A stretch of 36,308 nucleotides of DNA, taken from a virus. How positions within the stretch are numbered: the first letter of the stretch is position 1; each line of letters begins with the position of its first letter. The position numbers and the translations under genes were made by a program. The notes under the pieces are model-generated. The model worked only from the letters and a program-made list of their open reading frames with translations. It did not search any database and was not told the origin of the DNA. The stretch lies in the IMG/VR virus record IMGVR_UViG_3300044452_000161. The stretch is one strand, 5' to 3'. Of this stretch, positions 5,508 to 30,827 are shown piece after piece.

Positions 5508-6155
5508 ATGGCGAAGAAAAAAGCCGCTATTCTCGATGAAAAATCCTTCCTCCGCCTGGTTGGCAAAGTCCTGAAGGGGTCACTGCAGCCTGAGGTGGAT
5601 GCGGTTGCATTTTTGTTGTCTTACAAGGCTGGTTTGCGCGTTCAAGAAATTGCTGGTTTGGAATGGGATCGGCACATCTTGGACGCACAAGGAGAGATAC
5701 GTCTTAAGCAGTTTTATGTCGGTCAAAGTCCACAAAACCGAAAAATAAAGCTGTTTCCAGTGCTATGGATCAGTGCTGACATCGGAAAATACGGTTCTGA
5801 AAGAACTCTCCGAATTCATCCTCTATTGGAAAAATCGCTGAATACCCTTCTCGAGCAACGAGACGGAGAGAAGTTTGTTGTTCCCAGCCGGGTAAAACAT
5901 GCAAGCCAAGAGCTACACGCACGCTCACACGCACTTAAAATTCGCATGAACCGTATCTACAAACAGCACGGCCTTGACGCCTGCACATCTCACTCAGGCC
6001 GTAGGACCTTCATCACCGATGCCGCCCAACAAGCCGCATTTTCTGGATGCTCCATCGCGGACGTCCGCGACATGGCGGGTCACCGAAGTATCAGGACCAC
6101 GGAAGCGTACATCGAAACATCGCCACAGCAAGCTGATCTCATCGGTCGCCTGTAA
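5508..6155 (+). CDS. Tyrosine recombinase, catalytic domain only
   Basis: GLRVQEI (Arg), GKYG (Lys), HSGRRTF (HxxR), AGHRSIRTTEAY (His, Tyr); 215 aa; AAGGAG RBS. Confidence 0.88.
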   Translation: MAKKKAAILDEKSFLRLVGKVLKGSLQPEVDAVAFLLSYKAGLRVQEIAGLEWDRHILDAQGEIRLKQFYVGQSPQNRKIKLFPVLWISADIGKYGSERTLRIHPLLEKSLNTLLEQRDGEKFVVPSRVKHASQELHARSHALKIRMNRIYKQHGLDACTSHSGRRTFITDAAQQAAFSGCSIADVRDMAGHRSIRTTEAYIETSPQQADLIGRL

Positions 6156-8500: not shown

Positions 8501-8965
8501 TTAACTTGCGGCCCAAATGTGTGCGATAATTCGGTTTGCAAGCGCATCTTCGTCTATACTGCCGCCACCGTTGTTGCTGTTATTGTTCGTTACAGAAGTG
8601 GCAACACCTTGGGCCGCTACCGAGGCGTTTACGAATATTGTCGCATCTTTGCTTTGAGTGTGGTCTGACACCACCCCATCGTCTGAGAAAAGGTTACCGT
8701 TTAGAATACACTGATGAGCGTGGTCTGCGGCGACGATCTTCCATCCGTTCGTAAGAATGAATGTTGTACCTGTAAACAGGCCGGTGGCTCCGATAGGAGT
8801 ACCGCCTTCCACAGAGAAAGCAGGGAGATACTTGGAGTTGTCTCCAATTTGTGTCCATCTTTTCCAAGCGGAGTAGATGTCTCTGTCGACATCGAAAACT
8901 GTATCACCCGATCCTACCGGTTCGGTTATGCGTTTGGTATCTCCATCGAAAATAAAATCAGCCAT
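8501..8965 (-). CDS. Probable virion structural protein
   Basis: 154 aa, last gene of the minus-strand cluster; N-terminus resembles that of 12862-14247. Confidence 0.55.
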   Translation of the reverse strand: MADFIFDGDTKRITEPVGSGDTVFDVDRDIYSAWKRWTQIGDNSKYLPAFSVEGGTPIGATGLFTGTTFILTNGWKIVAADHAHQCILNGNLFSDDGVVSDHTQSKDATIFVNASVAAQGVATSVTNNNSNNGGGSIDEDALANRIIAHIWAAS

Positions 8966-8975
8966 AATATCGTCC

Positions 8976-11633: not shown

Positions 11634-12862
11634 GGATTCTCGTACTGTCGGTCAGGCACTTGGTTCACAGACAAAGTGATGTCTCCGCCAGTGAGGTCGA
11701 TGTTCCGCTCTAAGATGGCTTCATGCTCCAATTCGTAAATTGCGATGTCCACCAATTCCGCCCTGATAAGCATTGACGTTGTTCCTGAGGAAGAATCCTC
11801 CTGCGCCAATATTGTGTTTGTGCCTGCCTCAAATATTGAAACGCGACTGCCCGGAACCAACGGGGTCACGGTTACGAAAGCGGAATTTATTATGTTTACC
11901 GTGCCGCCATTTGGTGTGGAAACGATGCTGGCATTTGACTGCACATTTGTGATGTTGAGCGTGTCCGTACCCAGCCATTGGACGTGAACGCTGCATTCAT
12001 CGGGAAAGGTTATCAAAGGAAACGTTAAGTCTAAATCGCCACCGCCCAACACAGGCTCAATACGAATAGCAAGTGGTGAGTTAGCCATCGTCGTAAAGAC
12101 AAGAGCGTCAATAGCGGACTGCATATTGGGCTGCGTGTCTGAGGTTACTGTGACTTCCGCGACAGCCCCCTTTTCGAACAGTTCCGTGCGAATCTCCTCA
12201 TTCGTCGGTACGTTCGCGCCAACAAACGAATTCACCATCCCGTAATACCCATTCACGGGTGATACCAACTGAAACGCTGAACCGCCGATTGAATAAGTCG
12301 TCGTACCCGTTACCCCGCCTATACGGAATCCGCTGCGCCCCGCACCTGATACATCAGAAACGTTGGCAGTGCCTTGCGACACCCCATCTAGGAAAAACTC
12401 AAGCTGGCTGAAGCCACCACCAATGTCGCGAAACACCAAGGCCAAGTGATAAGGCCTGTCAGGGACAATCGCGGTGTTCGATCCGACTTGCACTACATCA
12501 GGGTCACAATCAGCCTCGCAAACAATTGAGTTCCCAAAGCCAAGAAAAAACGAGTTGTTGGCTGTTTGTCCACCATCACCAAACACACGGCACGGTGGCT
12601 GCTGAATGGCCGACGTTTGGAACCACAGCGAATAACAGTAGCCTACGGTTACATTCTGTACATCCGGATCAGATGCGGCTAACGCGCTATCATTCGTTCC
12701 GTTTGTGACATAGCTGGTGGCCGCATCAAGGCAGATTTGCGGGCCAGTGAAAGCGCCCCCTGAATTGGTGTAGTTCAGCGAACCAATGACGTCGTTTGCA
12801 TTACCATCAAGCGGCCAAAGATGGTTTGCACCAAGCGCGATAATGTCGTCGCGATATGCCAT
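11630..12862 (-). CDS. LamG-like (concanavalin fold) virion protein
   Basis: HLWPLDGNAND, SLWFQT, YHLALVF..FFLDGVSQG; paralogous to the C-terminal half of 8976-11633. Confidence 0.65.
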   Translation of the reverse strand: MAYRDDIIALGANHLWPLDGNANDVIGSLNYTNSGGAFTGPQICLDAATSYVTNGTNDSALAASDPDVQNVTVGYCYSLWFQTSAIQQPPCRVFGDGGQTANNSFFLGFGNSIVCEADCDPDVVQVGSNTAIVPDRPYHLALVFRDIGGGFSQLEFFLDGVSQGTANVSDVSGAGRSGFRIGGVTGTTTYSIGGSAFQLVSPVNGYYGMVNSFVGANVPTNEEIRTELFEKGAVAEVTVTSDTQPNMQSAIDALVFTTMANSPLAIRIEPVLGGGDLDLTFPLITFPDECSVHVQWLGTDTLNITNVQSNASIVSTPNGGTVNIINSAFVTVTPLVPGSRVSIFEAGTNTILAQEDSSSGTTSMLIRAELVDIAIYELEHEAILERNIDLTGGDITLSVNQVPDRQYENP

Positions 12863-14247
12863 TAGGCGTTTTCGTAGTTCCGCTCTAGCGGGCCAATCAA
12901 ACTAATGACGTTCGTGGTCGAACGCGTGATAACCCCAGTCGCCTTTGTAAACCCAGCCACGTCAAGGCCACCTGCAACAACGGTAATCGGCGCATCGACG
13001 CCGGGCGTGCGGCCACCTTGCGCGTTACCATCGAAGTCAAAATCGAACGTAATTGATGGCTGCCCCGCCACCGCGCCAGCAACATCTGTTGAAGAGTTGT
13101 CTTGTACAGTTATTGCGCTGCTTTCTCCGTACACGTTGCCAGCCGCATCTGTGAAGAAAACCCGGAAGTGTCCGTTCGGATCGTTCTGGAGGTTTGTGTT
13201 GAAATTTAGCGTGACTACCGCAACGAATGGGAAGGAGCGATTAGTTCCTGTGTTGTCGGTGAATGTAATCCGGTTTGTATCTGCGGTCTGAAAATTGTCG
13301 ATATAGACACCAGAACCGCCCCCATCTGGGTTGGTTACAGAAAGAGTTTCCAGAGACCCGGACCCATCACCTGCACCACCAATGAAACTCAGCAATTCGT
13401 CAGCTACCTGCCCTAACAAAGTGGATGCGTCAGCGTCGATATCGGCGTTCTGACGCAACTGGTACTGCACAAACTCGTAAATCTGTTCAGCCGTTCCGTT
13501 ATTGCCGTCAATGATAACGCCAAAGTCGAAGTTTGAGGCACCGATTGTCCGGCTTTGTGGCGTGCTGTGATACGTGATCGACATGCCTGTATAAGGCGCG
13601 ATTGTGGCAATGTTCCCGTCTGTCTCTGTAATGTTAAGGTCATTGCCCGTGTTCAGCGTTAGAGAGAACAGCTTAGGCGCTAGAAGGTTAGCTTCACCGT
13701 TGGCTGTCGTAGAGCCTTTGGAATAAAGTTGGCCTTGCTGCCGGTTGTACACGTCGATGTTTGTGGATCGATTAAAGCCGTCCGCGTAGTTTCCATCACC
13801 GTTTGGGTCGCTGATGATTTGAACAACCTCGGCAGTGTTGCCAAGGTAAACAAAATCCGTCGCCCCAGCTCCGGTATCGTAGTAGATTTGGTCGTCCGCC
13901 TCTGCGCCGAGAATTGCGATGCCCGCCCAATGCTCGGTTACGTTGCCAGATGTGTTGCGGACCAAGAAGCCACCACGACGCAAAAGGTTTCGCGTAGTCG
14001 TGTCCGCCCAGTTCCAACCCTCCTGAAGCTCAAAGAATTCGTCTGTAATCGGAACGAAAGGGAATTCGAACTTGGGCAGGTTTCCATCGTCCTTCCATTC
14101 CTCTTTGGCGAAAGAATAGACTGCCTTTAGGGTCACGCCATCTGCCGATAGGTTTCCCGCTTCAAGCAACTGGATTGTCTTGGCGTTTGTGTCAAAAACA
14201 ACCTCTGTACCTTGGTTGAGGCTGTCAGGATCGGTAATAAGTGCCAT
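12862..14247 (-). CDS. Probable virion structural protein
   Basis: 461 aa, D/N/T/G-rich; GGAGG RBS; TAATG coupling to the next gene. Confidence 0.6.
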   Translation of the reverse strand: MALITDPDSLNQGTEVVFDTNAKTIQLLEAGNLSADGVTLKAVYSFAKEEWKDDGNLPKFEFPFVPITDEFFELQEGWNWADTTTRNLLRRGGFLVRNTSGNVTEHWAGIAILGAEADDQIYYDTGAGATDFVYLGNTAEVVQIISDPNGDGNYADGFNRSTNIDVYNRQQGQLYSKGSTTANGEANLLAPKLFSLTLNTGNDLNITETDGNIATIAPYTGMSITYHSTPQSRTIGASNFDFGVIIDGNNGTAEQIYEFVQYQLRQNADIDADASTLLGQVADELLSFIGGAGDGSGSLETLSVTNPDGGGSGVYIDNFQTADTNRITFTDNTGTNRSFPFVAVVTLNFNTNLQNDPNGHFRVFFTDAAGNVYGESSAITVQDNSSTDVAGAVAGQPSITFDFDFDGNAQGGRTPGVDAPITVVAGGLDVAGFTKATGVITRSTTNVISLIGPLERNYENA

Positions 14248-14309
14248 TAAATGTCCTCCGACTTCGTATTGGCCTTAGTGGGTTGGTGGTGTAGTCCGAT
14301 GGTCGGGGA

Positions 14310-14816
14310 TCAGGACTTGGTTGAAGTGACCTTGGTGAGGACACCGCTCGTGTATTCTAGATGCCTACTTGTGCCTGTGGCGGAGTTTTGGACCCTAATC
14401 AAATTGTCTGAGGCATCGTAACTTAGGCTTATCTCTGTGCCGTCTTCTGCGGTGACACGTGTGAGTAGGCCCGTTTCATAGGTTAGGGTTTTGTCATCCA
14501 GAACTTCGAAAGTTGCTGGATTTAGTTCGCGGTCGCTTCCAACAACCAAAGCGCCACTTGATGCGCCAGCTTCAATGACCGATACAATCTCAGCCTCTGT
14601 AAAGGCTCCGAATGACTCGGCAAGGGTATATCTATCTGCCACCGGCACAGACAAAGAAGAGACCAGTGCCTCTATGTATTGCCCTTTTCGAAGGTCTGCG
14701 ACGAAGGTCGATGACGTTTCGATATCGGTTGAGATCATGGACTGCCTGGCAAGGTATGAAACAAGCTCGCCTTCAGCGTCTATACCAGTTCTCAGGTTGT
14801 TATTCTTACCGGACAT
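14310..14816 (-). CDS. Hypothetical protein with a short YD-like C-terminal segment
   Basis: LTYETGLLTRVT..LSYDASDNLIRV..LEYTSGVLTKV. Confidence 0.5.
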   Translation of the reverse strand: MSGKNNNLRTGIDAEGELVSYLARQSMISTDIETSSTFVADLRKGQYIEALVSSLSVPVADRYTLAESFGAFTEAEIVSVIEAGASSGALVVGSDRELNPATFEVLDDKTLTYETGLLTRVTAEDGTEISLSYDASDNLIRVQNSATGTSRHLEYTSGVLTKVTSTKS

Positions 14817-15210
14817 TAAATTGTAAAGTTCCTACTCCGTAGGATAGTGTGTCACCATCTGGGTTCGTTCGAGGAGCCGCCACTGGGCCGTGAAAGATAA
14901 GGTTACCTTGATCGTCCAATACCGCCGCGTGAGTAATTGTAGGCCAATCGCTGTTTACCGCAGGACCGAAAATCAACGCTGATTGGTTCGATACTTTGGT
15001 CCCAGTCCCCTGTGTGTGAACCGGTGCGCTCAGGGTAACCGATTGGCGTCCATATCCATTCAATACGGGCGGTTCCGTCAGCCCCGTGCCATCATCCAAA
15101 ATTTCCGTGGAAGACAAAGCCACGACCAAACTGGCAGGAGGTGTCGGCATTGTCGAACCTCTGATCCAATTGATAATGGATTGCTGAATATCTGCGCTGA
15201 GACCTGCCAT
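14806..15210 (-). CDS. Small tail-associated/tail-fibre-like protein
   Basis: GYGRQSV..SNQSALIFGPA..DWPTITHAAVLD..GNLIFHG pattern, typical of ~130-aa phage tail proteins. Confidence 0.6.
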   Translation of the reverse strand: MAGLSADIQQSIINWIRGSTMPTPPASLVVALSSTEILDDGTGLTEPPVLNGYGRQSVTLSAPVHTQGTGTKVSNQSALIFGPAVNSDWPTITHAAVLDDQGNLIFHGPVAAPRTNPDGDTLSYGVGTLQFNVR

Positions 15211-15476
15211 TATTCCACCGTGAACCAGATGTTTCCGTCGGTTTCTCCGTCAGCTAAGACGAAGTGAACGACATTGTTTGCCCATACACTCACAGTCTCG
15301 GCGCAATCAGCCGCAATAGGCATACCATTGTCTTGGTTCACTGTATCGGTGGGGACTGCACCGAGTACGTGAACGGCACGATTACTGTACACACGTAGTT
15401 TTACAGGAGCGCCACCAGGATTGTAGGTGCTGGGTACAGATGTAACGACTGCGCGTGTGGTTTTATTGATGTTCAT
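15210..15476 (-). CDS. Small beta-rich hypothetical protein (probably structural)
   Basis: Likely start is MNINKTT at 15476; the longer ORF call would cover the divergent promoter region. Confidence 0.5.
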   Translation of the reverse strand: MNINKTTRAVVTSVPSTYNPGGAPVKLRVYSNRAVHVLGAVPTDTVNQDNGMPIAADCAETVSVWANNVVHFVLADGETDGNIWFTVE

Positions 15477-15529
15477 GGAAGCTGCTCTGCTGAGAATTAT
15501 GACGAAATCATATCCGTAGCAGTCCGAAA

Positions 15530-15546
15530 TGTCAATCATTATGACA
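15530..15546. promoter_or_regulatory. TGTCA-N7-TGACA palindrome in the divergent promoter region
   Basis: TGTCA ATCATTA TGACA. Confidence 0.6.
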
Positions 15547-15580
15547 GTATGGCTGATGATATGCTGCTTCAAACTTAGTA

Positions 15581-15610
15581 TTGACATTCATTATGACATT
15601 GATGTATGAA
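15581..15610 (+). promoter_or_regulatory. Putative sigma70-type promoter for the NAD salvage genes
   Basis: TTGACA-18 nt-TATGAA, about 60 bp before the nadM start. Confidence 0.45.
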
Positions 15611-18903: not shown

Positions 18904-21900
18904 ATGAACAACTCTGAATTGCTGAACTACATCTTCGACGGGGTTGAAGAAGAGTTCATTCTGATATCCGAGGGTAGAGATGACCGCAGGTCTGTAGCGG
19001 AAGCTCATACCCCGATTGCTACCGATGTAATTCTAATCGACCTGTTTTTGCCTGACAGTAAGTCTGTTGTGGGTGTGCCAGTCGGTGATGCTTCGTTGGG
19101 AACAATAAGACTGTCGAAAGATGGAAGAGATGACGTTTACGTCGCTTTGTTCGATGTGCCAGTCGAAGAAGCTGATCTCCCTGAATCCGTAGACGATCTG
19201 ACCATTCCAATTCAAAATGGTTGGTCTGCGCATGTAGGTACTGACAAATTCTACTTGCTTGAAGAAGTTTTCCCACTCACCGGAAAGGAGGATGAAGATG
19301 CGCCGTCTTCTGAATCAGAAGTTATGGAAGCTGAAGACCTCGGTGATGAATTGGGAGAGAGTACTTCTTCTGAAGATAATGGAGACGCAAGCGACGTTGG
19401 CGGCGACGAATTCAGCGATCCAAGCCCAGAAGCAGAAGACCCCAACTCACCCAGCAACTCTGGTGACCTTGGAACAGTATCAGATAAAACTGACCAAGAA
19501 ATTGGATCAGCGGGAGAAGAGCCTCAGACGCCTACTAGCGATGACCAAAGTGATGGGGCTGTAACCGAGCTAGAACGGCAAAACGACGCGGTGCTCCACG
19601 GCGTAGAAACCGATGCCTGGCACACGTTGATGGATCAGCCCGCGACGCTACTGATGGGAAATCTGTGGGGTGCCCGGGATCGGCGGAACACTCAAGACGG
19701 CGACTGGAAAGAGGCCACACTTACCTGGGGAGCCTGGATTGACGGTGGCCCGCGTGAGCGGGGGATGTTGCCTTGGGGGTTTTCGCGGCACCCGATAGGC
19801 AAGCACAAAGAGGGACAATGCCTGGTGATGGGGTCGTCCATTGGCGGCGCACGCAAGGCTAAGGCCATGGACGAGATGTTCGCTATTGGCCTTGATGTCG
19901 ACAGCGGCGCTCAACTGGACGGCGTCTTGGACAAGCTGGAAGACCTTGGCGTCGCATGTCTGGTCTACACGTCTTACAATCACGGTAAATCCGGCCTGGC
20001 GCTAAAGCGTGACGACGTACTGCGAAAACTTCAGATCGACAACGATCCGTCGGACCAAGAAGTCCGGAATTATCTCACGCTACACGGCAAAGACCGGTTC
20101 GAAGCCGATTTTATCTCTCGGTGCACAATCAAAGATCAGAAGTACCAGACCACGGACGGTCTGAAGATACTTGTTGATACGCCACCGCTGGACAAATTTC
20201 GGCTGATTTTCCCGCTGGCTGAGCCGGTCAAGCTAATGGAATTAGGCAACACCGATGCCGACAGCTTAGCGATCTGGGAGGACGCCGTCACTGGTCTGGC
20301 TCAGAACACGATTGGCATATACTTCGACGCGGCGTGCACTGATCCGTCCCGTTTGTTTTACACGGCACGTCATGCACAGGATGCAGAAGATTGGTACTGC
20401 GCGATAGTTCGGGGCGATCCGCTGGTTTTTGAAGACATCGAGCCGATGCGTAAATCGGCCTATACCGCAAAGCGGGAAACGAACGTCTTTATAGAAGCCT
20501 CAGGCGATGACGGTGAGGATGATCTGCCGCCACTGTGTCTGACCCCGTCCGGCAAATCTTTGAACGATTGGCACAAGAGTGCCAAAGACAGGTTTTTGAT
20601 CGCGGACCTTTTGGAGGACCACTGCCCGGACAAAATCCGCAAAGCTGGTGGGGAGGCGCAAGGACATGTGCATACTGAATGCCCCTTTGAACATGAGCAT
20701 TCAGGTGAAGGCGGTACCGGGACCATGGCCATCAATGCTCTGGATTCTTCGTCGGAGTATTGGACCTGGTTCTGTCACCACGACGCTTGCCAAGGGCGGC
20801 ACAAGCTGCAGTTTCTGGAAGAGGCGTTAAGAGCCGGGTGGTTCGAGGAAGAACTCCTCTTTGACGAGGATGGAGGGTATCTGCTTGAGCCGCTAGAGGT
20901 TGAAGAAGAGGAAAAACCGGCGCTAGAGGCGGACCTAAATCTATCTCCTTCACAGCAAGCCGAAAACATAAACGACGATAGTTCTCAAAAGGACATCGAA
21001 GACCTGATTGAGAGCCTGGTTAACCAAGGCGTAGATCGCGTTGAACGTGCTGCTGCAATCGAAACCATGTCGAAAAACACGCGACTTGGAAAACGCGAGC
21101 TTTCATCGATGTGGAAGCAAATAGAAGCGGTTCACAAGGCCAACGCTCAGGAAGCTAAAAAGGTAAAAGCCACGGTTGCTGTCGTGAACCAATGGGATTT
21201 TTCCCAGATTCACGAGTATGGCAGCAAACGCATCCATGATACGAACCGGAAAACGCCGTCGGTGTTCCACTACATGGAAAATTTGACGATCATTCGGGAG
21301 AACTCCGAGGGCAAGCCAATCATGCGGTTCTTGGATCGTGGAGGCTTTGCACATCACTTGAACACCGTCGCAAAATTCGCCCGCGTCAGCGGGGAAGACG
21401 AGAGAAAGATTGGTGTATCGGCACCGGTAGATGTCGTGAACTATCTGTTCGAAGAAGATTATGGGAAATACCCTGATCTACAAGGCTTGGTCACAACTCC
21501 AATTTTCACCAAGTCAGGAACGATATTGTCGGAACCTGGGTACGATTGGGGTAGTAAACTCTTCTACAACCCAGACAACTCCCTGACATTGCGAAAAGTA
21601 GACGCAATACCCTCTCCCGAAGATGTGTTTGAAGCCAAAAGACTTTTGATCGAGGAGGTTTTGGCGGATTTTCCTCTAGGTGCTCTAACCAGAACTGAAA
21701 TCATCGAGCAAGGGCTTCATGGTGAGGGCGTCCCTGCTGTCACCAACATGATTGCAATGATCTTGTTGCCATTTATGCGTGAAATGATTTCCGGTCCTAC
21801 GCCTGGACACCTTCTGGTGAAACCGACACCGGGTACCGGCGCAAGTCTTCTGACAGACCTGTTTTCTATCATATCTGACGGTGTCGAGACACCTGCTTTG

Positions 21901-22758
21901 GCTATGCCGCACAGCAATGAAGAGATGGGTAAGACCCTGGCAGCGGTTCTGTCCAATGGCCAAAACATTGTGTTCTTCGACAATATCAATCACTCCGTTG
22001 ACTCTGCCGAGTTAGCGATGGCAATGACGCAGCCTACTTACCAGGCTCGTCTCTTGGGGCGGACACAAACAGTGGACGCGAAAGTGCGCTGTGTCTGGGT
22101 GTTTACTGGCAACAACGTGACATTGTCGCCTGAACTGGTTCGAAGACTTATTATGATCGATCTAGATGCGCGACTGGAGAACCCAGAGAAGCGCACAGGC
22201 TTCAAATACGAGAACATTAAGGATTGGGTTCGCGAGCATCGTTCCGAGCTTGTGTGGGCCTGTTTGACGTTAATTCAAAATTGGGTGGCACAAGGATCAC
22301 CTCATCAGAAGGATGTTGTTATGGCTTCATATGAAAGCTGGTCTGGAGCAGTGGGTGGTGTTCTTAAGTCGGTAGGTTTGGGCGGATTCCTAGGAAACCG
22401 GGAAGAACTGAAAGCCGCTGCTACTGACACGACCGGAGACGATGTATCGATCTTGATGGAAGCTTGGTGGGACAACTTTGGTCAATCCGAAGTTCCAGTA
22501 AAAGGTACCGACAAAGCCCCTGGATTGATAGAACTCGCGAACACAGAAGACCTATCTCTTCCGATGAAGAAAGAAGTCAATATGGACGGCGAACGAACTT
22601 ACTCATCTCGGTCTTTTGGTACTTTTCTAGGAAAGCACAAAGGCAAAATCAAAACCATGGAAGATGGTAGTATCGTCCGGATCGTGAAAGCGGACACGCG
22701 CACCAAGCAAGGCTTCAAGTGGTTCTTGGAGAAGCTGGACGATGAGGATGCGGCGTGA
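18904..22758 (+). CDS. Large replication protein: acidic N-terminus, AEP-like primase, Zn finger, C-terminal P-loop ATPase/helicase-like domain
   Basis: IGLDVDSG (DxD), YTSYNHG, KFRLIFPL, TDPSRLFY; CPFEHEH..CHHDAC; PGTGAS, VFFDNI, FTGNN, ELVRR. Confidence 0.75.
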   Translation: MNNSELLNYIFDGVEEEFILISEGRDDRRSVAEAHTPIATDVILIDLFLPDSKSVVGVPVGDASLGTIRLSKDGRDDVYVALFDVPVEEADLPESVDDLTIPIQNGWSAHVGTDKFYLLEEVFPLTGKEDEDAPSSESEVMEAEDLGDELGESTSSEDNGDASDVGGDEFSDPSPEAEDPNSPSNSGDLGTVSDKTDQEIGSAGEEPQTPTSDDQSDGAVTELERQNDAVLHGVETDAWHTLMDQPATLLMGNLWGARDRRNTQDGDWKEATLTWGAWIDGGPRERGMLPWGFSRHPIGKHKEGQCLVMGSSIGGARKAKAMDEMFAIGLDVDSGAQLDGVLDKLEDLGVACLVYTSYNHGKSGLALKRDDVLRKLQIDNDPSDQEVRNYLTLHGKDRFEADFISRCTIKDQKYQTTDGLKILVDTPPLDKFRLIFPLAEPVKLMELGNTDADSLAIWEDAVTGLAQNTIGIYFDAACTDPSRLFYTARHAQDAEDWYCAIVRGDPLVFEDIEPMRKSAYTAKRETNVFIEASGDDGEDDLPPLCLTPSGKSLNDWHKSAKDRFLIADLLEDHCPDKIRKAGGEAQGHVHTECPFEHEHSGEGGTGTMAINALDSSSEYWTWFCHHDACQGRHKLQFLEEALRAGWFEEELLFDEDGGYLLEPLEVEEEEKPALEADLNLSPSQQAENINDDSSQKDIEDLIESLVNQGVDRVERAAAIETMSKNTRLGKRELSSMWKQIEAVHKANAQEAKKVKATVAVVNQWDFSQIHEYGSKRIHDTNRKTPSVFHYMENLTIIRENSEGKPIMRFLDRGGFAHHLNTVAKFARVSGEDERKIGVSAPVDVVNYLFEEDYGKYPDLQGLVTTPIFTKSGTILSEPGYDWGSKLFYNPDNSLTLRKVDAIPSPEDVFEAKRLLIEEVLADFPLGALTRTEIIEQGLHGEGVPAVTNMIAMILLPFMREMISGPTPGHLLVKPTPGTGASLLTDLFSIISDGVETPALAMPHSNEEMGKTLAAVLSNGQNIVFFDNINHSVDSAELAMAMTQPTYQARLLGRTQTVDAKVRCVWVFTGNNVTLSPELVRRLIMIDLDARLENPEKRTGFKYENIKDWVREHRSELVWACLTLIQNWVAQGSPHQKDVVMASYESWSGAVGGVLKSVGLGGFLGNREELKAAATDTTGDDVSILMEAWWDNFGQSEVPVKGTDKAPGLIELANTEDLSLPMKKEVNMDGERTYSSRSFGTFLGKHKGKIKTMEDGSIVRIVKADTRTKQGFKWFLEKLDDEDAA

Positions 22759-22788
22759 AAAACAGGCCTTATCGTCCGGACGTAATTC

Positions 22789-22900
22789 GAATAGTTGAAA
22801 TGGAAGACTGGTATGAGGCAGACCCGAATGAGGTCTGCCATCACTGTGGTTGTCGATACAGAGAGCATCAACCAGTCTCCGGATATTCACAGTTTGTGAA
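22789..22900. other. Multi-stem structured element between convergent genes (terminator or ncRNA)
   Basis: 22802-22816 pairs with 22868-22880 (two bulges) and encloses GGCAGACC/GGTCTGCC; separate hairpin TTCACA/TGTGAA at 22886-22900. Confidence 0.45.
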
Positions 22901-22934
22901 GCTGTGTAATGGGGACTTGGTTAAACTTTTTTGA

Positions 22935-23204
22935 TTATCGGTAAGGGTTCCCTGCACGCAATTCATCAAGAGCTTCGTGAAGAGTTGTAGACTTTCTCTG
23001 TGCATGAGAGAGTAGATCATCGAGCGCGCGGTCGTAGGCGTCAGCCGGATGTGTTATGCGCTCAAGTCCGCTGGATACAGCGTCGCCAGCAGCGTCTTGA
23101 ATACTGCTAATCTTTCCCTTTACCGAGGTAAGATCAACGTCAGAAACAGCGTCTGTGATTGTTCTTCGGGCGTCGGTCGCCACTTTTGTAAGTTTCGAAA
23201 ACAT
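22935..23204 (-). CDS. Hypothetical helical protein
   Basis: 89-aa ORF, GAGG RBS; its ATG abuts the TGA of the orphan fragment 23205-23260. Confidence 0.6.
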   Translation of the reverse strand: MFSKLTKVATDARRTITDAVSDVDLTSVKGKISSIQDAAGDAVSSGLERITHPADAYDRALDDLLSHAQRKSTTLHEALDELRAGNPYR

Positions 23205-23260
23205 TCAAGCCTCGTTTGATTTATTGATTTTCTTCTGCTTAGCAATCAGCCAAGCTAACA
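23205..23260 (-). pseudogene. Orphan 3' end of the small membrane protein broken by the inversion
   Basis: Reads (V)LAWLIAKQKKINKSNEA*; joins in frame with 27281-27410 after re-inversion. Confidence 0.75.
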
Positions 23261-23261
23261 C

Positions 23262-24218
23262 GCGTTTGAAATCACGACATTCAGACGAGACGTTTCAACG
23301 GACGGACGCAGAGCGACCGTTTCCTTCGACGCTACTCTGTCAGATGATGCAGCGCGTCGTGATTTTACCATGAACGCCCTGTACGTTAACCGTCGGGGAC
23401 AATTGCTTGATCCTACCGGACACGGAATCAAGGACGCGAAGGAACGGCGTATCAGGTTTGTCGGCGATGGCACGGAACGCTGCCGGGAAGACTACTTGCG
23501 GATACTTCGGGCGTTTCGATTTACGGCAAAATATGGAACCGGACTCCTCACTGGGGATGTTGCACACGCAATTGCGCCAACTATCCCTGGCCTGAAGTGT
23601 GTATCAGAAGAACGCATCCTGGCAGAACTCAAGAAGATTGTGGTTTCACCCGGTGCCCACGGAGCCTTTCACCAGATGAAAGAGATGGGTGTATTTGGCT
23701 TTATCGGATTATCAGTCAACCGTATCGACTGGTTGAACACACTGCGCCGCGCAGAGGAGCAGTACGGTTTCAAAACAGATTGGCGGATAGCCCTTACCCC
23801 AATGCTTCAACGGATCGAAGAGTTGGAAAACCTTCCTTTGTCCAAATCAGACCGTAAGGCCATAAACTCTATATGGAACTACACAACATCAGATTTGTGT
23901 GACCTCTCTGGCCGTTCCTTAGGGTTCAAATTCAAAGACCATTTTACTGCTGTGGCTGCGTACCTAATTGGAGTGGCTCTAGGCTACCGGTCTTTCAATC
24001 ACAATGAGATCAACGACATCGAGATCGGAGTGAATGCCAAACTACCGGTCACGTCTGAGGATTTTCGAAACCGTGGCATCGAAAATGGCCCTATGATGGG
24101 GGCATGCATCATGATGGCGAAAAAAGAGTACTACAACAGCGATCTTCGCCTAACCAGTGCTCATATTATTGACAATGTAATGTCACAATTACTTGCCGAA
24201 TCGCCTTCATGTGGATAA
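23262..24218 (+). pseudogene. cca: C-terminal portion of a CCA-adding tRNA nucleotidyltransferase
   Basis: Frame opens after TAA 23256 with AFEITTFRRDVSTDGRRA..DDAARRDFTMNAL..IRFVG..EDYLRILRAFRF..VSEERI..EL; no start codon before the motif region. Confidence 0.85.
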
Positions 24219-24291
24219 CTTTATGGCAATGAGAACGTCGAATTCGTGAAGGCGAGCGACCCCAAACCCTCTGCAGGAGAAAGAATTCACA

Positions 24292-24645
24292 ATGGCTGAG
24301 GCAGATAAGATAGTTGAGCAAATCAACGAGAGCATGTACCAAGCAACATTCCATTTACGTACGTTTTTCGACGTAACAGAGATCGAGGATTTGGAGGGCT
24401 GGGGACCGGTGGTTCTTGCCCTTCAAACTCTACCGCCTGATCAATACAGAACCATAGGGATTGCTTTGTTGGCGCTGTTCTTTGAAACGGAGAACAAAGA
24501 CCCCGCAGATTATCAGCACAGACGTGAGTTGGTCCATATGGTGGACGTACTGGCAAACAACATTGTCGGGGCGGCACAATCTTTCATTCAAAACCAGAAC
24601 AGAAATACGCAGATGTTAATGCGTCCTTCACGGGTGATTGACTGA
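24292..24645 (+). CDS. Hypothetical protein
   Basis: 117-aa ORF with AGGAG upstream. Confidence 0.6.
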   Translation: MAEADKIVEQINESMYQATFHLRTFFDVTEIEDLEGWGPVVLALQTLPPDQYRTIGIALLALFFETENKDPADYQHRRELVHMVDVLANNIVGAAQSFIQNQNRNTQMLMRPSRVID

Positions 24646-24647
24646 AC

Positions 24648-24965
24648 ATGAAGACAGCAACCGACGATAACTTCGAAGACCTCACTTCCGGTGGACTTAC
24701 CTATGTCATGTTCTCCGCCCCTTGGGCAGGACCATGCAACTTGGCACGTCCAAAGTTTAGGTCTGTTGCTGCTCGTTTTGGAAACCAAATAACCTTTGCC
24801 GAGTTCGATCTAGACGACAACCCAGACACCCCTGCCCGCTTCGGAGTCCGCAGCGTTCCCTGGTTTTTGTTGATGGAAAATGGCGTACCGGTGTCAGTAA
24901 AAGCTGGCGACATACCAGAGGAAGTTCTGGTGGATGTGTGCAACGAAGTCTTGGGAGGAACTTGA
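24648..24965 (+). CDS. Thioredoxin-fold protein with atypical WAGPC site
   Basis: TDDNFE..VMFSAPWAGPC..FDLDDNPDTPARFGVRSVP..ENGVPV. Confidence 0.8.
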   Translation: MKTATDDNFEDLTSGGLTYVMFSAPWAGPCNLARPKFRSVAARFGNQITFAEFDLDDNPDTPARFGVRSVPWFLLMENGVPVSVKAGDIPEEVLVDVCNEVLGGT

Positions 24966-24966
24966 T

Positions 24967-25173
24967 ATGAGATTAAATCTAAGATCAATTGAAATTCGGT
25001 TCACCCCCTTTGACTGGGGACCGGTAAAACCAATAGTGCAAATACCCTTTTTCTACCGGAAAAAATTAGGACCTTTTGGGGTCAGCTACTGGGTAAGCCC
25101 CACGAATGCTGAGATCAATGCAATGGTTGATGAACGAAACCGGAAACAGGCAGGCAACTATGAACAAGCGTGA
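24967..25173 (+). CDS. Small hypothetical protein
   Basis: GGAGGA RBS before the ATG at 24967. Confidence 0.5.
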   Translation: MRLNLRSIEIRFTPFDWGPVKPIVQIPFFYRKKLGPFGVSYWVSPTNAEINAMVDERNRKQAGNYEQA

Positions 25174-25558
25174 ACTTCGCCTGGCTATCAAAGACAAGCT
25201 GGATCATCGCAGACGGCTCATTAAAGAGAACGGAGTGCTTAGAGAAGACCTCCGTAGAGAACATGCACGCAACAAGTTTTTAGAAAAAGCCATAAACAAC
25301 CCGATGGTTGATCAAGTATTGGAACATTGTGCAGATGAGATCATGAAAGCCGTTGTGTTCCGAGCCATTGAAGCTTCAGAAGTTGTGGCAGAGCAAACTG
25401 TGGAAGACGGAGACTACCTTGTAGGCATCGATATCCCGAGCCTACACATTCGACAGCGAATTTACAGAGAGACCCTTCGCCTGAGTAGTATGGGGGTTTC
25501 AAGCGCGGTTCCAGAAAAGCAACCTGTGAAGCTGATTGACTTCCAGACAGCCTGTTAG
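25160..25558 (+). CDS. Hypothetical protein with coiled-coil N-terminus
   Basis: Likely start MNKREL at 25160, overlapping the previous gene. Confidence 0.55.
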   Translation: MNKRELRLAIKDKLDHRRRLIKENGVLREDLRREHARNKFLEKAINNPMVDQVLEHCADEIMKAVVFRAIEASEVVAEQTVEDGDYLVGIDIPSLHIRQRIYRETLRLSSMGVSSAVPEKQPVKLIDFQTAC

Positions 25559-25804
25559 GTGAAAATCTGTGCAAGGAGACATTCAGTGAAAGCAGTTCAA
25601 TTCAGCCCTGATTATTGCGACGAAGCCAGGAACGCCCGATTTAAGGATTGGGACAGTAGTCATGATTTGTCTATTATCGATGACAGCGGCAAGCGTATTC
25701 AGATAGGACACTTCAAATCTGCAGTGTATGGCTATGGGGTGCAGTGCTTGATCAACGAGAATCCGGAATCCTTTAAACAGGCCATGAAGGAGTTCTACAG
25801 CTAA
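25559..25804 (+). CDS. Small hypothetical protein
   Basis: 81-aa ORF packed between co-oriented genes; start uncertain. Confidence 0.45.
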   Translation: MKICARRHSVKAVQFSPDYCDEARNARFKDWDSSHDLSIIDDSGKRIQIGHFKSAVYGYGVQCLINENPESFKQAMKEFYS

Positions 25805-25819
25805 GGGAGGAGTTCAGCC

Positions 25820-26119
25820 TTGACGAGACTGACTGACAAGCAAGCGGTCATATCTGCGCTGCACGACGCCATTCAATGGCAGACAGAATTCAGAAATGCC
25901 AACGTTGGATTCGATGATGAACAAGTGGCGCATTGTGATCGCTACATAGCAGCTTACCGCCGAACTTTGGGACGCATTACAGGAAGCAAAGCGTCTGCTG
26001 CAGAAGTTCGGGAAATGATCGCATTTAAGGATGTTGAAGTAATGTCAGTACAACAAATTCAAAGAGCGGTCGACGCAGGTGCAATCAAAATCGAAAACTT
26101 TGGAGACAGCGATGATTGA
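25820..26119 (+). CDS. Hypothetical protein
   Basis: 99 aa, GAGGAG RBS, TTG start. Confidence 0.55.
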   Translation: MTRLTDKQAVISALHDAIQWQTEFRNANVGFDDEQVAHCDRYIAAYRRTLGRITGSKASAAEVREMIAFKDVEVMSVQQIQRAVDAGAIKIENFGDSDD

Positions 26120-26393
26120 AGTCATGAACCACGACGGGTCAGAGGTCGTCCATCTTTCCACTGTTACCGACGCTTCGAACGCAGAAGAAGCGACGCAAAT
26201 ACTACTGAACAGCTTAAAAGACGCCGCGAAGGTGCACGGAGGAGAGATCATCCGCGTAAGAACCGGCGTTTATTGGGCCGATGGCCCGTACGGATGGTCC
26301 GAAGCATACGTTGTAAGTGAAGGCGCTACAGCGAAAAGCGTTGTGTCCCAAGCAATCGACCCATTTACAGTTGAGTTCAGCAATATTGACTGA
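26112..26393 (+). CDS. Hypothetical protein
   Basis: Likely start MIEVMNH after GGAG, overlapping the previous stop. Confidence 0.5.
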   Translation: MIEVMNHDGSEVVHLSTVTDASNAEEATQILLNSLKDAAKVHGGEIIRVRTGVYWADGPYGWSEAYVVSEGATAKSVVSQAIDPFTVEFSNID

Positions 26394-26477
26394 CATTTTC
26401 TGTTGTTTTAAATGACAGAATCACTTACACAAGATCACACAAACTATCATTGCAACACTCGTGTAAGGAGATTTTTC

Positions 26478-27284
26478 GTGAAGAGACTTGTAGCAGCGGC
26501 CTTTGTCTTTGGGCTGATGGGTTCCGTAGCAATCGCAGATACTATTCGGATTGGCGTCGGACAACCTGGGCGAGGATATGAAGCCCACGGCATGAAAATT
26601 GGAGATCGCCTAGACGACTCCGAGGTTGTGAACTTTGCAGGGTCCGACGAGATCAGCCGGGCTTTGTGTGACGGCGATATCGACATCGGAATCATGCAAA
26701 ACGATGCGAAGTATCAACGAAGCCTGGAGGGCTGCAAACTTCGCTCCGTTGGGGAATATCCCAACAAAGAATTTGCTTTCATTCTTTTCCCAGAAGGATC
26801 GAGCTTCAATGAACTCGATGATCTTCGGGAATCGAACAAAATCCTTGTCGATGAGATTGGCTCTGGTACGGACTTGTTCTGGACGACGATCAAGCAAATT
26901 GAAACTGAACATGGACGTGGGTCAAACTGGATGAACGCGAACCGCGTGAACGACATGTTCTTGTTTGCCGACGCTATGGCGGCAGAGGGTTCTATTGATG
27001 CCCTGGTGTATGTTGGTGATCCGAACTCTCAGGAAATCTGGGACTTTCTGTCAGCAGGATGGGAAGTTGGAGAACTCTACGACAAAGACATCAACGATAT
27101 GAAGGTCAACGGAGAAAGCCTCTACACGCGAGAGACCGTTACCATCGACCCTCCTGGGCGATGGAACACCCAAAAGGAAGACGCCTATGTTGTGCGCTCT
27201 TTCATCGTAGCGCGTACCGACTGGCTGGCTGAGGACCGATCACGCGCGCGCGACGTTGCTCAGGCTGTAAAAGCGGCTCAGTGA
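26478..27284 (+). CDS. Secreted TAXI-like periplasmic solute-binding protein
   Basis: AAGGAG plus GTG start; signal peptide; IRIGVG..G..Y, GSDE....L..G..DIGIMQND, LDDL, GSGT. Confidence 0.65.
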   Translation: MKRLVAAAFVFGLMGSVAIADTIRIGVGQPGRGYEAHGMKIGDRLDDSEVVNFAGSDEISRALCDGDIDIGIMQNDAKYQRSLEGCKLRSVGEYPNKEFAFILFPEGSSFNELDDLRESNKILVDEIGSGTDLFWTTIKQIETEHGRGSNWMNANRVNDMFLFADAMAAEGSIDALVYVGDPNSQEIWDFLSAGWEVGELYDKDINDMKVNGESLYTRETVTIDPPGRWNTQKEDAYVVRSFIVARTDWLAEDRSRARDVAQAVKAAQ

Positions 27285-27410
27285 TGCTCAGTCGGGTCAT
27301 TTTATGGATCGCGGGGGGCTTAGTTGCCCTCCACGGTTTCGTCATTTGGGCTGATATGGTGATGGAGACTTGGTTCCTCGATGAACTCTTGGGCTTCCTT
27401 ATCACCAGCG
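27281..27410 (+). pseudogene. 5' part of a small two-TM membrane protein cut at the inversion breakpoint
   Basis: Hydrophobic MMLSRVILWIAGGLVALHGFVIW..GFLITS; currently reads on to a stop at 27475 through antisense cca sequence. Confidence 0.65.
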
Positions 27411-27661
27411 CCTTTCTGAAGGACAGCCGTTATCGTTCCGTGCTCAAGGCCTGTAAAGACGACGTCTCCGTGTAATTGGGCCACCGCGTACGCCTCTTCT
27501 GGAGTTGCATCAGTTGCGATGTCCACATCTTCGCAAGGGACGCCCAAAAGAAAGTCACGCACGCAACCGCCCACGAGATAGGCTTTATGGCCTGCTAATT
27601 CGAAGGATTTGAGAAGTTCGTCGAGTCCTTCGTATTGGGTGATCAAATCTCGCGCTACCAT
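27408..27661 (-). pseudogene. cca: N-terminal catalytic portion of the CCA-adding enzyme
   Basis: YLVGGCVRDFLLG..EDVDIATDATPEE..TGLEHGTITAVLQKG (DxD catalytic motif); similarity stops at the breakpoint. Confidence 0.88.
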
Positions 27662-28038
27662 TGGGACAAAGCCTTCAACATGACTTTCAAGGAGTCGTTC
27701 GTCTCGGGCGCGACTTCTGGTAACTTTGACAGCCCTGTTCCAAGCCCATCTTCAGGAATGACAACAATGCCCCCGGCTACGACGTGCGTGATTGCACGTG
27801 TCAAGTCGGTCGCCATAATACGACGGTTCTCTTCCAACTCGTCATCAGAAAAGAAGTCAGCAGCGTTCATTCCGGGGGACTTTTTGGTGGCTACGCCAAC
27901 CGCGTTTGGCTCGCCCCGCATCTCACGCGCCTGACCTCCATACCCAATGCGAGCGACGTTGTCCCCGAACAAGTACAAGAAGTCCGGATTGCTTTGTAAA
28001 TCTTCTCTAGTGATCCATTTCTGGTAAACCACAGGCAT
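27655..28038 (-). CDS. Conserved phage hypothetical protein (FGDN..GxGGQA family)
   Basis: YLFGDNVARIGYGGQAREMRGEPNAVGVATK..GLGTG; GGAGGA RBS. Confidence 0.7.
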   Translation of the reverse strand: MPVVYQKWITREDLQSNPDFLYLFGDNVARIGYGGQAREMRGEPNAVGVATKKSPGMNAADFFSDDELEENRRIMATDLTRAITHVVAGGIVVIPEDGLGTGLSKLPEVAPETNDSLKVMLKALSQW

Positions 28039-28066
28039 ATGAATGTCCTCCGATATATCGTTTCGG

Positions 28067-28083
28067 TGTCAGTCTTGATGACA
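28067..28083. promoter_or_regulatory. TGTCA-N7-TGACA palindrome
   Basis: TGTCA GTCTTGA TGACA, about 28 bp upstream of the minus-strand start at 28038. Confidence 0.6.
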
Positions 28084-28144
28084 TTCAATGCGTGATTCGT
28101 CAAGAAATTTGTCATAAATTCGAGAAAAGTAAGAAAAAATGACC

Positions 28145-28759
28145 TCACAGGTCAAAGTCGAACGTTTCCAATTCCGCTAGACAAATGAACTGCGTCCCGT
28201 CGATCACCATAGCGGCAGATTGATGCCAGTGGCCAAAAATCCATATATCTGGTTGATGGAATTCAAACATGTCTTGAAAAGTCACACTTGTCCGAGACGG
28301 AAAGCTGTGGGACTTGAAGTCTTTGAATAGAACATCCGTCACTTTGTCCGGAGCGTCGTGGGTGACCATGATCCGAGGTAACTTTGTGATGTAGGTTTGT
28401 TCAACGCGGTAAAACTCTTGGAAAGACAATTCCTCCTCGTGCCACCAAGACACACCGGGTGTGCGAAAGTCTTTGTCGATTGATAGTGCGCCACCAACCA
28501 ACATCATTCCTGTATTCGGATCATAGGTTCCGTCTTTGATCCATCCGGGGCTTTCCTTGCACCTTCCTGGGTCATCGTGGTTACCACGAATGAACCGGTG
28601 AACGTCTGCGGAATCTTCCCACAATGACTCTAAAGCTGCTACTTTTCTTCCTGTCAGAAAGCCCATTCCCAGGTCTCCGACTTGGATACTTTCATCGCAG
28701 TCTTGGAGGAGTTCAAGATAGGGGCCAATATGACCGTGTACGTCGCCTATGAAGCGCAT
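28145..28759 (-). CDS. Calcineurin-like metallophosphoesterase
   Basis: IGDVHG, VGDLG, RGNHD, VTHDAP, FGHWH. Confidence 0.88.
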   Translation of the reverse strand: MRFIGDVHGHIGPYLELLQDCDESIQVGDLGMGFLTGRKVAALESLWEDSADVHRFIRGNHDDPGRCKESPGWIKDGTYDPNTGMMLVGGALSIDKDFRTPGVSWWHEEELSFQEFYRVEQTYITKLPRIMVTHDAPDKVTDVLFKDFKSHSFPSRTSVTFQDMFEFHQPDIWIFGHWHQSAAMVIDGTQFICLAELETFDFDL

Positions 28760-28776
28760 TTTGGATACCTGTTAAT

Positions 28777-29142
28777 TCGGGTGTAGACCCATATTTCACC
28801 GCTGGCTGCAACCACCTGCACTTTCGATATTCACTGTCGTAAGTTGCCGTAGACCCACATTTCACCGTTGGCTGCAACTGAAGTTGCGCAGGCCAAGAGA
28901 TTGATCGTGTTGCCGTAGACCCAAATTTCACCGCGGGCTGCAACGTTCAAATCACTGCTGACAAGACTGCTGATGTTGCCGTAGACCCACATTTCACCAA
29001 GGACTGCAACTATTGGCTCCGTTACGAATGAAGGATTCAAGTTGCCGTAGACCCACATTTCACCAAGGACTACAACTGTCACTGCTGCTGCAAGTACAAC
29101 CAACTCGTTGCCGTAGACCCACATTTCACCGCTGGCTGCAAC
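28777..29142 (-). CRISPR. CRISPR array: 6 repeats of 36 bp and 5 unique 30-bp spacers
   Basis: Plus-strand consensus GTTGCCGTAGACCCACATTTCACCGCTGGCTGCAAC at 28777 (degenerate first 6 nt), 28843, 28909, 28975, 29041, 29107; strand inferred from the adjacent nuclease. Confidence 0.93.
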
Positions 29143-29149
29143 TGATGTG

Positions 29150-29445
29150 CTAACAACTAATTGATCCTTCGATAGAATCTCCCGGTTCGATGGTAAAAGA
29201 GTGTCCTCCCGGCCCGTGTGAAGATGTCTTCACAGGGCTAACGATGGGATTCAACAGGTCGTTCTTTCCAAGTGCATTACACTCAGAGAGATCGGGGGCA
29301 ACATCGAACGATACGATGTTTCCTCCCATGCCTGCCTTCCATCCAGACAAACTGTCTGGAGCGTTGGTCGTCTGCTGGTTGACCAACATGGGACCAGCAA
29401 CAGTCCCCATATATCCCGAAGACATCAAGCGATGGTTCGGGAATG
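29150..29445 (-). ncRNA. Candidate omegaRNA/tracrRNA-like scaffold overlapping the 3' end of the nuclease gene
   Basis: Six inverted repeats in ~230 bp, loop-loop complementarity and a partial anti-repeat; boundaries unknown. Confidence 0.55.
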
Positions 29446-30790
29446 CTTTGTTGAGGATATTGAACGCTGCCATTTCATCAGCGTGTTCCTCATGTCCGCA
29501 CGTGGAGCAGTGAAACTTTTCCTGCCGAACGCGGCTTACTTTGGATACGGACCCACACGCTTTACACGTCTGAGACGTATAAGCGGGATCGACGGATAAA
29601 ACATGATGTCCAACCCCCGCAGCTTTGTATTCAAGCTGTGACCTAAACATGTACTTTGGAACATCCAAGAACGTACGATTGAAGTTCGCCTGAGCTTGGT
29701 TGGATATAACCTTCTTTCCTGACTTTCTGCGTGACTTTCCGCTCTCAGTCATTTTCTTGACCGACAAGTCCTCAACAGCGATGTGCGTGTAATTTCGAAC
29801 CAGATCAGTCGTTATCTTGTGAAGTGCCAATCTCTTTCTGGCTGCCTCTTTACGCAGCTTTGCAGCAAGTTTCTTCCGAACGGCATTTCGTTTCTTGCTA
29901 CCCTTTTGTTTTCTTGAAAGCGCCTTCCGAAGGTGCGTCGTTTCGTGTTTGTGTTCTGGTGAGGTTGGAATGTCAAACGCTTCCAATATGCTTCCAGATA
30001 GACCAGTGGAGTCAGCAATAGCAATTGGATTTGTTGTCCCAAGATCAACCCCGACAAATCGCGGTTCAATACTTGTGTTTTCCACAACTTCTCGACTGGT
30101 GGCGACGCATATCGACCAAATATCATCTTCGCGAACAATTGTTGCTGTGTGGAGTTTCCGGCGACGCAGTCTTGCATGTCCGTTGTACTTAATCCACCCA
30201 ATTTTTGCCACTTTGACGCAGTCTTTTCCAAATACGGTACAGGCTTTTCCGCTCAAATAAATCCGATACGTAAGAGACTGAACTCCTCGCGTGCTTCGAA
30301 ACTTTGGTTTATCACAGGGTTTTCTTTTCCGAAGATTGTCGAAGTATTTGTCCCAAGCCATGTCTAGACTATCAAGAGCGTATTTGAACTGGTCTTTGCC
30401 AGCGTATTCATATAGCCACGATAGTTCAGGATCGTCCCTCAGGCCAGACAAGCTGACTAACTCCGATTTACGCAATCGAGCTACAGCCCTTTCCTTGGAG
30501 CCGTCTTTGGTCTTGCTAAACTTGTTGTTTGCATCATCCCAAGGCTTCCACTGTGGGAGGACTCTTTCAGTCTTGCAGTCCCGAAAACCAACTTCCTTTA
30601 CCTGTCTATTCGAGTTGAAAGAAGAGTTTCTGCCGTGTCTGTCAGTTCCCTGAACTTCTGAGTACATACGACGCTGTTCATTGGCCGCGTTGTACACCAT
30701 ACGGACGGCTGCAAATGCCTGTTCCAACTGCGCCTTTTGGGCTGTCGTTGGGTATAGACGGAACTTCAATGTTCTCATCTTGCGCGGCAT
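29150..30790 (-). CDS. IS605 TnpB-like RuvC nuclease; candidate compact type V CRISPR effector
   Basis: TLKFRLYPT..Q...L...F..VRMVYN; RuvC-I VGVDLG; RuvC-II IAVEDL; VDPAYTSQTCKACG..CSTCG Zn ribbon; RuvC-III HADEMAAFNI; AAAGGA RBS favours the ATG at 30790 (alternative 30823). Confidence 0.88.
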   Translation of the reverse strand: MPRKMRTLKFRLYPTTAQKAQLEQAFAAVRMVYNAANEQRRMYSEVQGTDRHGRNSSFNSNRQVKEVGFRDCKTERVLPQWKPWDDANNKFSKTKDGSKERAVARLRKSELVSLSGLRDDPELSWLYEYAGKDQFKYALDSLDMAWDKYFDNLRKRKPCDKPKFRSTRGVQSLTYRIYLSGKACTVFGKDCVKVAKIGWIKYNGHARLRRRKLHTATIVREDDIWSICVATSREVVENTSIEPRFVGVDLGTTNPIAIADSTGLSGSILEAFDIPTSPEHKHETTHLRKALSRKQKGSKKRNAVRKKLAAKLRKEAARKRLALHKITTDLVRNYTHIAVEDLSVKKMTESGKSRRKSGKKVISNQAQANFNRTFLDVPKYMFRSQLEYKAAGVGHHVLSVDPAYTSQTCKACGSVSKVSRVRQEKFHCSTCGHEEHADEMAAFNILNKAFPNHRLMSSGYMGTVAGPMLVNQQTTNAPDSLSGWKAGMGGNIVSFDVAPDLSECNALGKNDLLNPIVSPVKTSSHGPGGHSFTIEPGDSIEGSISC

Positions 30791-30827
30791 TCGGTGACAT
30801 CCTTTCGTTCGTTTCGCTGTCATCTAA

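Follow-up and report, generated by a model that had tools for sequence, protein, structure and literature searches.

In IMG/VR virus record IMGVR_UViG_3300044452_000161 (36,308 nucleotides; the window in what follows), a block of 4,154 bp between positions 23259 and 27412 lies on the strand opposite to that of its relatives, and its two ends fall inside two genes, a cca gene for a CCA-adding enzyme and a gene for a small membrane-type protein. The evidence supports a real, lossless, gene-splitting inversion. Probably, a recent, single and reciprocal inversion at the dinucleotide AA/TT inactivated a gene that the phage can do without, and the flipped genomes came to outnumber the unflipped ones.

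The 5' piece of cca (27413-27661, minus strand) holds codons 1-83, including the catalytic DxD motif (D45, D47), and matches positions 1-58 of the PolyA_pol domain. The 3' piece (23259-24218, plus strand) holds residues 84-402 and matches PolyA_pol 61-126; PHROG 2244 is matched as well. Both assignments bear out an original prediction made from the letters of the window, which placed the N-terminus of the enzyme on the minus strand and a remainder lacking a start codon on the plus strand. In the split form, the 5' piece continues to 27320 as a 113-residue open reading frame (ORF) with a foreign tail; the 3' piece has a stop codon at 23256 and its first ATG at Met120 (23370), past E87 and the RRD motif at 116-118. 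The membrane-type gene is divided into a 5' piece of 44 codons (27281-27412, plus strand), which has homologs in four relative loci and in protein P0133, and a 3' piece of 17 codons and a stop (23205-23258, minus strand), which aligns without gaps to the C-termini of the homologs. Its 5' piece reads through to 27475 in the split form and thereby acquires a foreign C-terminus.

Re-inverting the block yielded the continuous 402-residue enzyme that had been anticipated and also completed the membrane protein, at 61 residues, with its TGA adjoining the ATG at 23204. The product of the reciprocal junction, WFLDELLGFLITSALAWLIAKQ, shows a gap-free alignment with its homologs, for example WFFDELLGWLINAALVWIIAKQ in phage DSS3P8, and with P0133. 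An intact membrane protein of the window's own lineage was not found, the search returning a single homolog at 60% identity. After re-inversion, gene order and strand equal those of the relatives, in agreement with the predicted co-orientation of the block with its flanks, and the inversion of 23259-27412 is lossless at least to the codon level, as had been claimed. That two genes and synteny are restored together is beyond chance. The product of the larger gene combines a PolyA_pol head domain (Pfam) with DxD, a conserved E and RRD, all features of class II tRNA nucleotidyltransferases (CCA-adding enzymes and poly(A) polymerases). D45, D47, E87, R116, R117 and D118 are kept in 117-119 of 119 aligned homologs, E87 and RRD 116-118 being invariant (119/119). 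The best NCBIfam match is CCA tRNA nucleotidyltransferase, at 199 bits under a cut-off of 290, and annotations in the relatives go either way, so that CCA addition, rather than A-, CC- or poly(A) addition, is a putative activity. Phage CCA-adding enzymes have been described as restoring tRNA 3' ends (PMC7824862).

An intact counterpart exists. P0121, a 402-residue CCA-adding enzyme encoded on a 9,610-bp contig of JGI/IMG, is identical to the two pieces of the window at 400 of 402 residues, the differences being E44A and L179R only, and it keeps all of the conserved residues listed above. The neighbouring proteins on that contig differ from those of the window at 3 of 127 and 5 of 204 residues, and the intact copy is thus assigned to a sister strain. 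Among 96 relative loci, 92 match the C-terminal piece and 84 match both; in all 84 the two parts lie in one frame (80 joined directly, and four flagged loci open over 354-372 codons). The eight loci without an N-terminal match comprise five near a contig start and three distant ones. Since cca is whole in all eight phage-like relative loci, the split state is derived. The 282-residue and 113-residue proteins of the split form occur on four and six contigs, respectively, from JGI/IMG and Logan, the intact form on one. A search for the N-terminal piece joined to anything else found no further variant (three matches among 63 candidates). Neither piece has accumulated a stop or a frameshift, which indicates that the inversion is young.

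The position of the crossover could be narrowed down to two bases. Aligned to each other, the two ends read AA-CA-CGC and AA-GG-CGC, and a scan of lossless cut pairs showed that crossovers at AA (giving QKHAFE) and at CGC (giving QKGAFE) each restore 402 residues. Both leave the 7-residue spacer that is present in 71 of 71 motif-matching proteins (132 scanned, P0121 being among the 71). From contig ends in one sequencing run, X3 (see below), the AA core had been predicted before P0121 was found by protein-cluster look-up, and P0121 reads QKHAFE. When all cut pairs were scanned, only the AA/TT crossover (23257-59 with 27414-12) reached the minimum of two mismatches to P0121, against three for CGC. 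The left core is thus AA at 23257-23258, and the right core TT at 27413-27414 (AA on the minus strand); the X3 contig overlaps begin at 23257 and 27413. The 3-bp CGC/GCG core originally proposed, with its junctions KGAFE and ITSVLAW, has to be replaced by this 2-bp core, since both P0121 and the X3 overlaps agree with AA rather than with a crossover at CGC 23261-23263. Among inversions placed at random in this window, 15.9% have an overlap of at least 2 nucleotides, so that the core taken alone is within chance.

The split junctions were traced in contigs, not raw reads, of four (X1-X4) of the 13 sequencing runs that contain the stretch, among which no RNA run is listed, and they are present in all four. 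Logan contigs are described as non-branching paths of a simplified k=31 graph in which minor variants are collapsed (10.1101/2024.07.30.605881); a 2-bp overlap is therefore unable to misjoin them, and a minority orientation can vanish from them. In X1 and X2, positions 21000-29004 lie in one contig with both split junctions and without any difference from the window, at 26x and 34x. In X4, each split junction lies within a long contig (41x and 37x), with one fixed difference elsewhere. In X3, the split junctions stand at contig ends, 28 letters beyond each core and just below the bridging rule of the tool; no joint is listed in any of the four runs.

The X3 contigs break with overlaps at 23257-23286 and 27413-27442. 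These are exactly the branch nodes expected in a k=31 graph to which only the cca-restoring junction with the AA core is added; a CGC core predicts 23261-23290 and 27408-27437, which are not the breaks of X3. Unexplained depth in the two junction bins of X3 amounts to 445 and 473 depth-bases, compared with at most 19 in seven other bins checked, and corresponds to two 30-nucleotide pieces at about 15x versus a total of about 35x. Both orientations therefore probably coexist in X3. The breaks expected for the second restoring junction, at 23229-23258 and 27385-27414, are absent; this junction may have been pruned by the assembler or may truly be missing. Assemblers can prune minor branches of this kind.

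The three options that had been offered at the outset, an invertible switch, a recent microhomology inversion and an assembly or amplification artefact, can be ranked on this basis. The microhomology inversion fits best, the switch keeps a smaller share of the probability and an artefact is unlikely. According to the favoured scenario, one reciprocal cut-and-rejoin event would have flipped the 4,154-bp block and split cca and the membrane gene; that it was a single event is argued by the fact that both junctions can be restored without loss. Its likeliest agent would be a recombinase or a topoisomerase that worked on a secondary site, with another kind of end joining only slightly less probable; three of the four sequence arms at the cores have bases in common, as listed below. 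The flipped product would then have become the majority form while unflipped genomes persisted, and loss of cca would be tolerated if the host supplies a CCA-adding enzyme. The host likely has its own.

Several observations weigh against this scenario. The relatives are just about 36-60% identical in protein, and at such a distance they would not reveal a switch that is young and specific to this lineage. Runs X1-X4, the four of the 13 that were analysed, were all flagged as possible sources of the window. The cca-restoring junction is probably present in X3 (about 15x of about 35x, as judged from contig ends and depth), and since a single SNP (single nucleotide polymorphism) bubble survives there in 9 kb, the molecules carrying it look like the haplotype of the window rather than the sister strain; they are probably closer to the window than the P0121 strain is. 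A restoring junction on the window's own haplotype is what a reversible switch predicts. Finally, the sequences flanking the cores resemble each other more than those of a random AA/TT pair do, in a post hoc comparison over four lengths (p 0.009-0.044 for the best three arms, 0.03-0.14 for all four).

Such a switch, without repeats and with degenerate sites around a 2-bp core, would toggle the CCA enzyme, the C-terminus of the membrane protein and the gene at 22935-23204; the enzyme at work would be a serine recombinase of the host or the short XerC-like recombinase of the phage. We regard it as a tentative alternative, clearly less probable than a single event. The junctions are lossless and reciprocal, both junction types probably occur in X3 on a near-identical background, and the pieces have not decayed. 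The 2-bp core without loss of bases agrees with a serine-invertase site, serine recombinases being described as cutting with a 2-bp stagger (PMC4817059). Read outward, C at +3 and TGA at +9 to +11 recur in three of the four arms, which agree at 5-7 of 13 positions overall; the membrane-gene site is an imperfect palindrome (7 of 13 positions). The fourth arm, however, matches the others at only 2, 2 and 4 of 13 positions, and the shared TGA can derive from conserved codons (F-E, I-T, L-I). Beyond AA/TT, or 5 of 7 positions within AA-NN-CGC, flanking inverted repeats are lacking: as originally stated, there is no long inverted repeat, none having turned up among the 25 longest of 218 inverted pairs or in the alignment of the two ends. 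Nor is the core conserved, with AA at the matching codon in none of eight cca relatives and TT in none of four membrane-gene relatives, and X3 shows no break for the second restoring junction.

A fitting enzyme is not apparent either. No match to the Resolvase family, and no serine recombinase, was found among the 46 ORFs of the window or in five relative genomes searched. The only site-specific recombinase among the 46 ORFs is a XerC-like tyrosine recombinase of 215 residues (5508-6155, plus strand), which lies 17 kb from the inversion; the block's own ORFs include no recombinase. The tyrosine recombinase has a counterpart in all five relatives searched, and multimer resolution has been proposed for the one in phiCbK (PMC3556154). 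Action of a tyrosine recombinase on a 7-bp AA-NN-CGC spacer was considered and rejected: one daughter strand should then carry the same spacer at both junctions, and in the window the two differ.

It is improbable that the inversion is fixed in the lineage and that X3 owes its signal to a sister phage in the same sample or to a rearranged molecule with the cca-restoring junction alone. Of the two restoring junctions X3 implies just one, intact cca is present in a sister strain, and minority SNP tracts, largely synonymous, occur in X3 and X4. A sister phage at the distance of the P0121 strain should nevertheless leave many bubbles in X3, in place of one in 9 kb. The tracts themselves (22365-22425, 26186-26237 and 26690-26798) make up about one quarter to one third of the depth and differ between X3 and X4; together with a fixed change at 26434, 14 of the 15 variants fall on third positions and 13 of 15 are synonymous, a pattern that suggests patches acquired from a related phage by recombination. 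That assembly or amplification produced the split as an artefact is very unlikely: all four runs are possible sources of the window, their library types are unrecorded and only contigs were used, but k=31 non-branching contigs cannot misjoin on a 2-bp overlap (10.1101/2024.07.30.605881), both split junctions lie in single contigs of X1 and X2 and within long contigs of X4, neither X3 nor X4 is identical to the window or to the other, and hence they do not represent one data set, and the split-form proteins occur in both JGI/IMG and Logan.

The consequences of the split, as read from the sequence, would be unequal for the genes involved. No active enzyme is expected from the split cca, because D45/D47 are separated from E87 and RRD and the 3' piece starts at Met120. 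The membrane protein would gain a foreign tail. About eight passenger ORFs (24292-27284, plus strand) travel with the block, including a thioredoxin (24648-24965) and a TAXI/TRAP-like solute-binding protein (26412-27284). A putative promoter-like motif of the GAATC class at 24181-24202 (plus strand) lies inside the block upstream of them and would flip with them, so that the passengers are probably not switched and likely remain expressed in the split form. The earlier proposal that a switch controls some eight passenger genes is thus not supported. A second putative GAATC motif is found at 28094-28114 (minus strand), upstream of DUF7831 and cca. These promoter calls are based solely on a looser motif scan, in which six of nine matches (2551, 4734, 5431, 24181, 28114 and 34740) lie upstream of co-oriented genes. 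A generic promoter and terminator scan stayed at chance level (8 versus 6.3 and 5 versus 6.3), and a degenerate promoter consensus gave 2 matches versus 1.47 expected. The conserved 89-residue gene at 22935-23204 (minus strand), which has homologs in L009-L012, lies outside the block; it closes the passenger run in the intact form, is separated from that run in the split form and would there lose its upstream operon and promoter. In L009, L010 and L012, a small gene and an SPFH/band 7 gene stand between the membrane gene and the 89-residue gene; the phage of the window is without them, and the two genes adjoin in the restored form.

The window belongs to a marine DSS3P8-like (CbK-like) roseophage, as gene order and best protein matches indicate. 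The closest matches in both DNA and protein are DSS3_MAL1, MD18, V10, DSS3P8, RpAliso and RcXuper, and its ORFs include rIIA/B, the short tyrosine recombinase, PNK, RNA ligase, NadM, NAMPT and a 1,284-residue primase-like protein; tRNA genes were not found in the window. DSS3P8, DSS3_MAL1, Phaeobacter phage MD18 and RcXuper share with it, in the same order, rIIA/B, the short tyrosine recombinase, RNA ligase, NadM, NAMPT, primase, thioredoxin, cca, DUF7831 and phosphoesterase. These four annotated relatives have a whole cca, and the genes from the 89-residue gene through a TRAP-like protein, thioredoxin, cca and DUF7831 to phosphoesterase lie on one strand, whereas in the window the 4,154-bp block is flipped and cca split. 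Near-identical DNA was not found in viral_contigs, phages, genome_contigs or metagenome_contigs (15 of 64 parts of the latter scanned). The genome_contigs search returned four loci at about 50% identity, none of them with cca; loci L093-L096, in Mangrovicoccus and Poseidonocella genomes, encode relatives about 50% identical to the TAXI/TRAP-like protein of the block.

Two further regions of the window are noteworthy. A seven-gene structural block at 8501-15587 (minus strand), between an AAA_33 gene and NadM, has no counterpart at that place in MAL1 or MD18. The product of 12862-14247 is 54% identical to a protein of Maribacter phage Panino and 44% identical to gp53 of cyanophage Syn5, which we take to be the horn protein; gp80-fibre and LamG Pfam matches occur in the block as well, and it looks like an acquired head-appendage module. 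At 29150-30823 (minus strand) lies a 557-residue TnpB-family gene (NF040570, above cut-off), without a TnpA among the scanned ORFs; its exact sequence is absent from the protein collection, and no connection to the inversion was found. Straight after its stop, six 66-nucleotide coding repeats (GEMWVYGN units; 28777-29148) possibly represent a gene interrupted by the TnpB insertion. These repeats interrupt contigs in all four runs.

On the likely reading, a natural knockout was caught early, as the majority form in four runs, and an intact form that is nearly identical can be set beside it. The phage, which has a tRNA cluster, RNA ligase and kinase, would have lost its CCA-adding enzyme, and the pair of intact and split forms offers a direct test of what tRNA-end repair contributes to phage fitness. 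The case also indicates that lossless inversions on two bases occur inside phage genes. Should the flip be reversible, a counter-defence gene would undergo phase variation that needs no inverted repeats and is invisible to current inverton screens, and a whole class of repeat-less intragenic on/off switches would be missed by searches that start from such repeats.

Known systems resemble this inversion in part. A split or invertible phage CCA gene was not reported in the literature searched, most subscription papers lying outside its coverage, and the main text of the DSS3P8 description (PMC4961962) does not contain the word 'inversion'. Gene-altering programmed inversions, defined by flanking inverted repeats of at least 22 bp as screened (PMC9881135), and intragenic invertons, exemplified by one with an 11-bp repeat (PMC10028968), likewise have breakpoints inside coding sequence and alter proteins. 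As described there, they carry inverted repeats, usually have a recombinase nearby and typically swap homologous alleles, whereas here the core has 2 bp, the two genes that are cut are unrelated and one of the states seems to be null. For putative viral invertons from gut metagenomes (PMC13501310), sequencing reads similarly hint at two orientations within a phage gene; they were sought from inverted repeats (14 bp in one example), and that screen would miss the present case. The Hin/Gin/Cin serine invertases, which flip the G segment of phage Mu and the C segment of P1, share with it a lossless inversion on a 2-bp core (2-bp stagger, PMC4817059). In contrast to those systems, the window has no near-identical pair of sites and no invertase gene was found in it, and the target is a tRNA-repair gene instead of tail fibres. 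The hix sites have an AA core, and Cin and Gin perform inversions at secondary sites.

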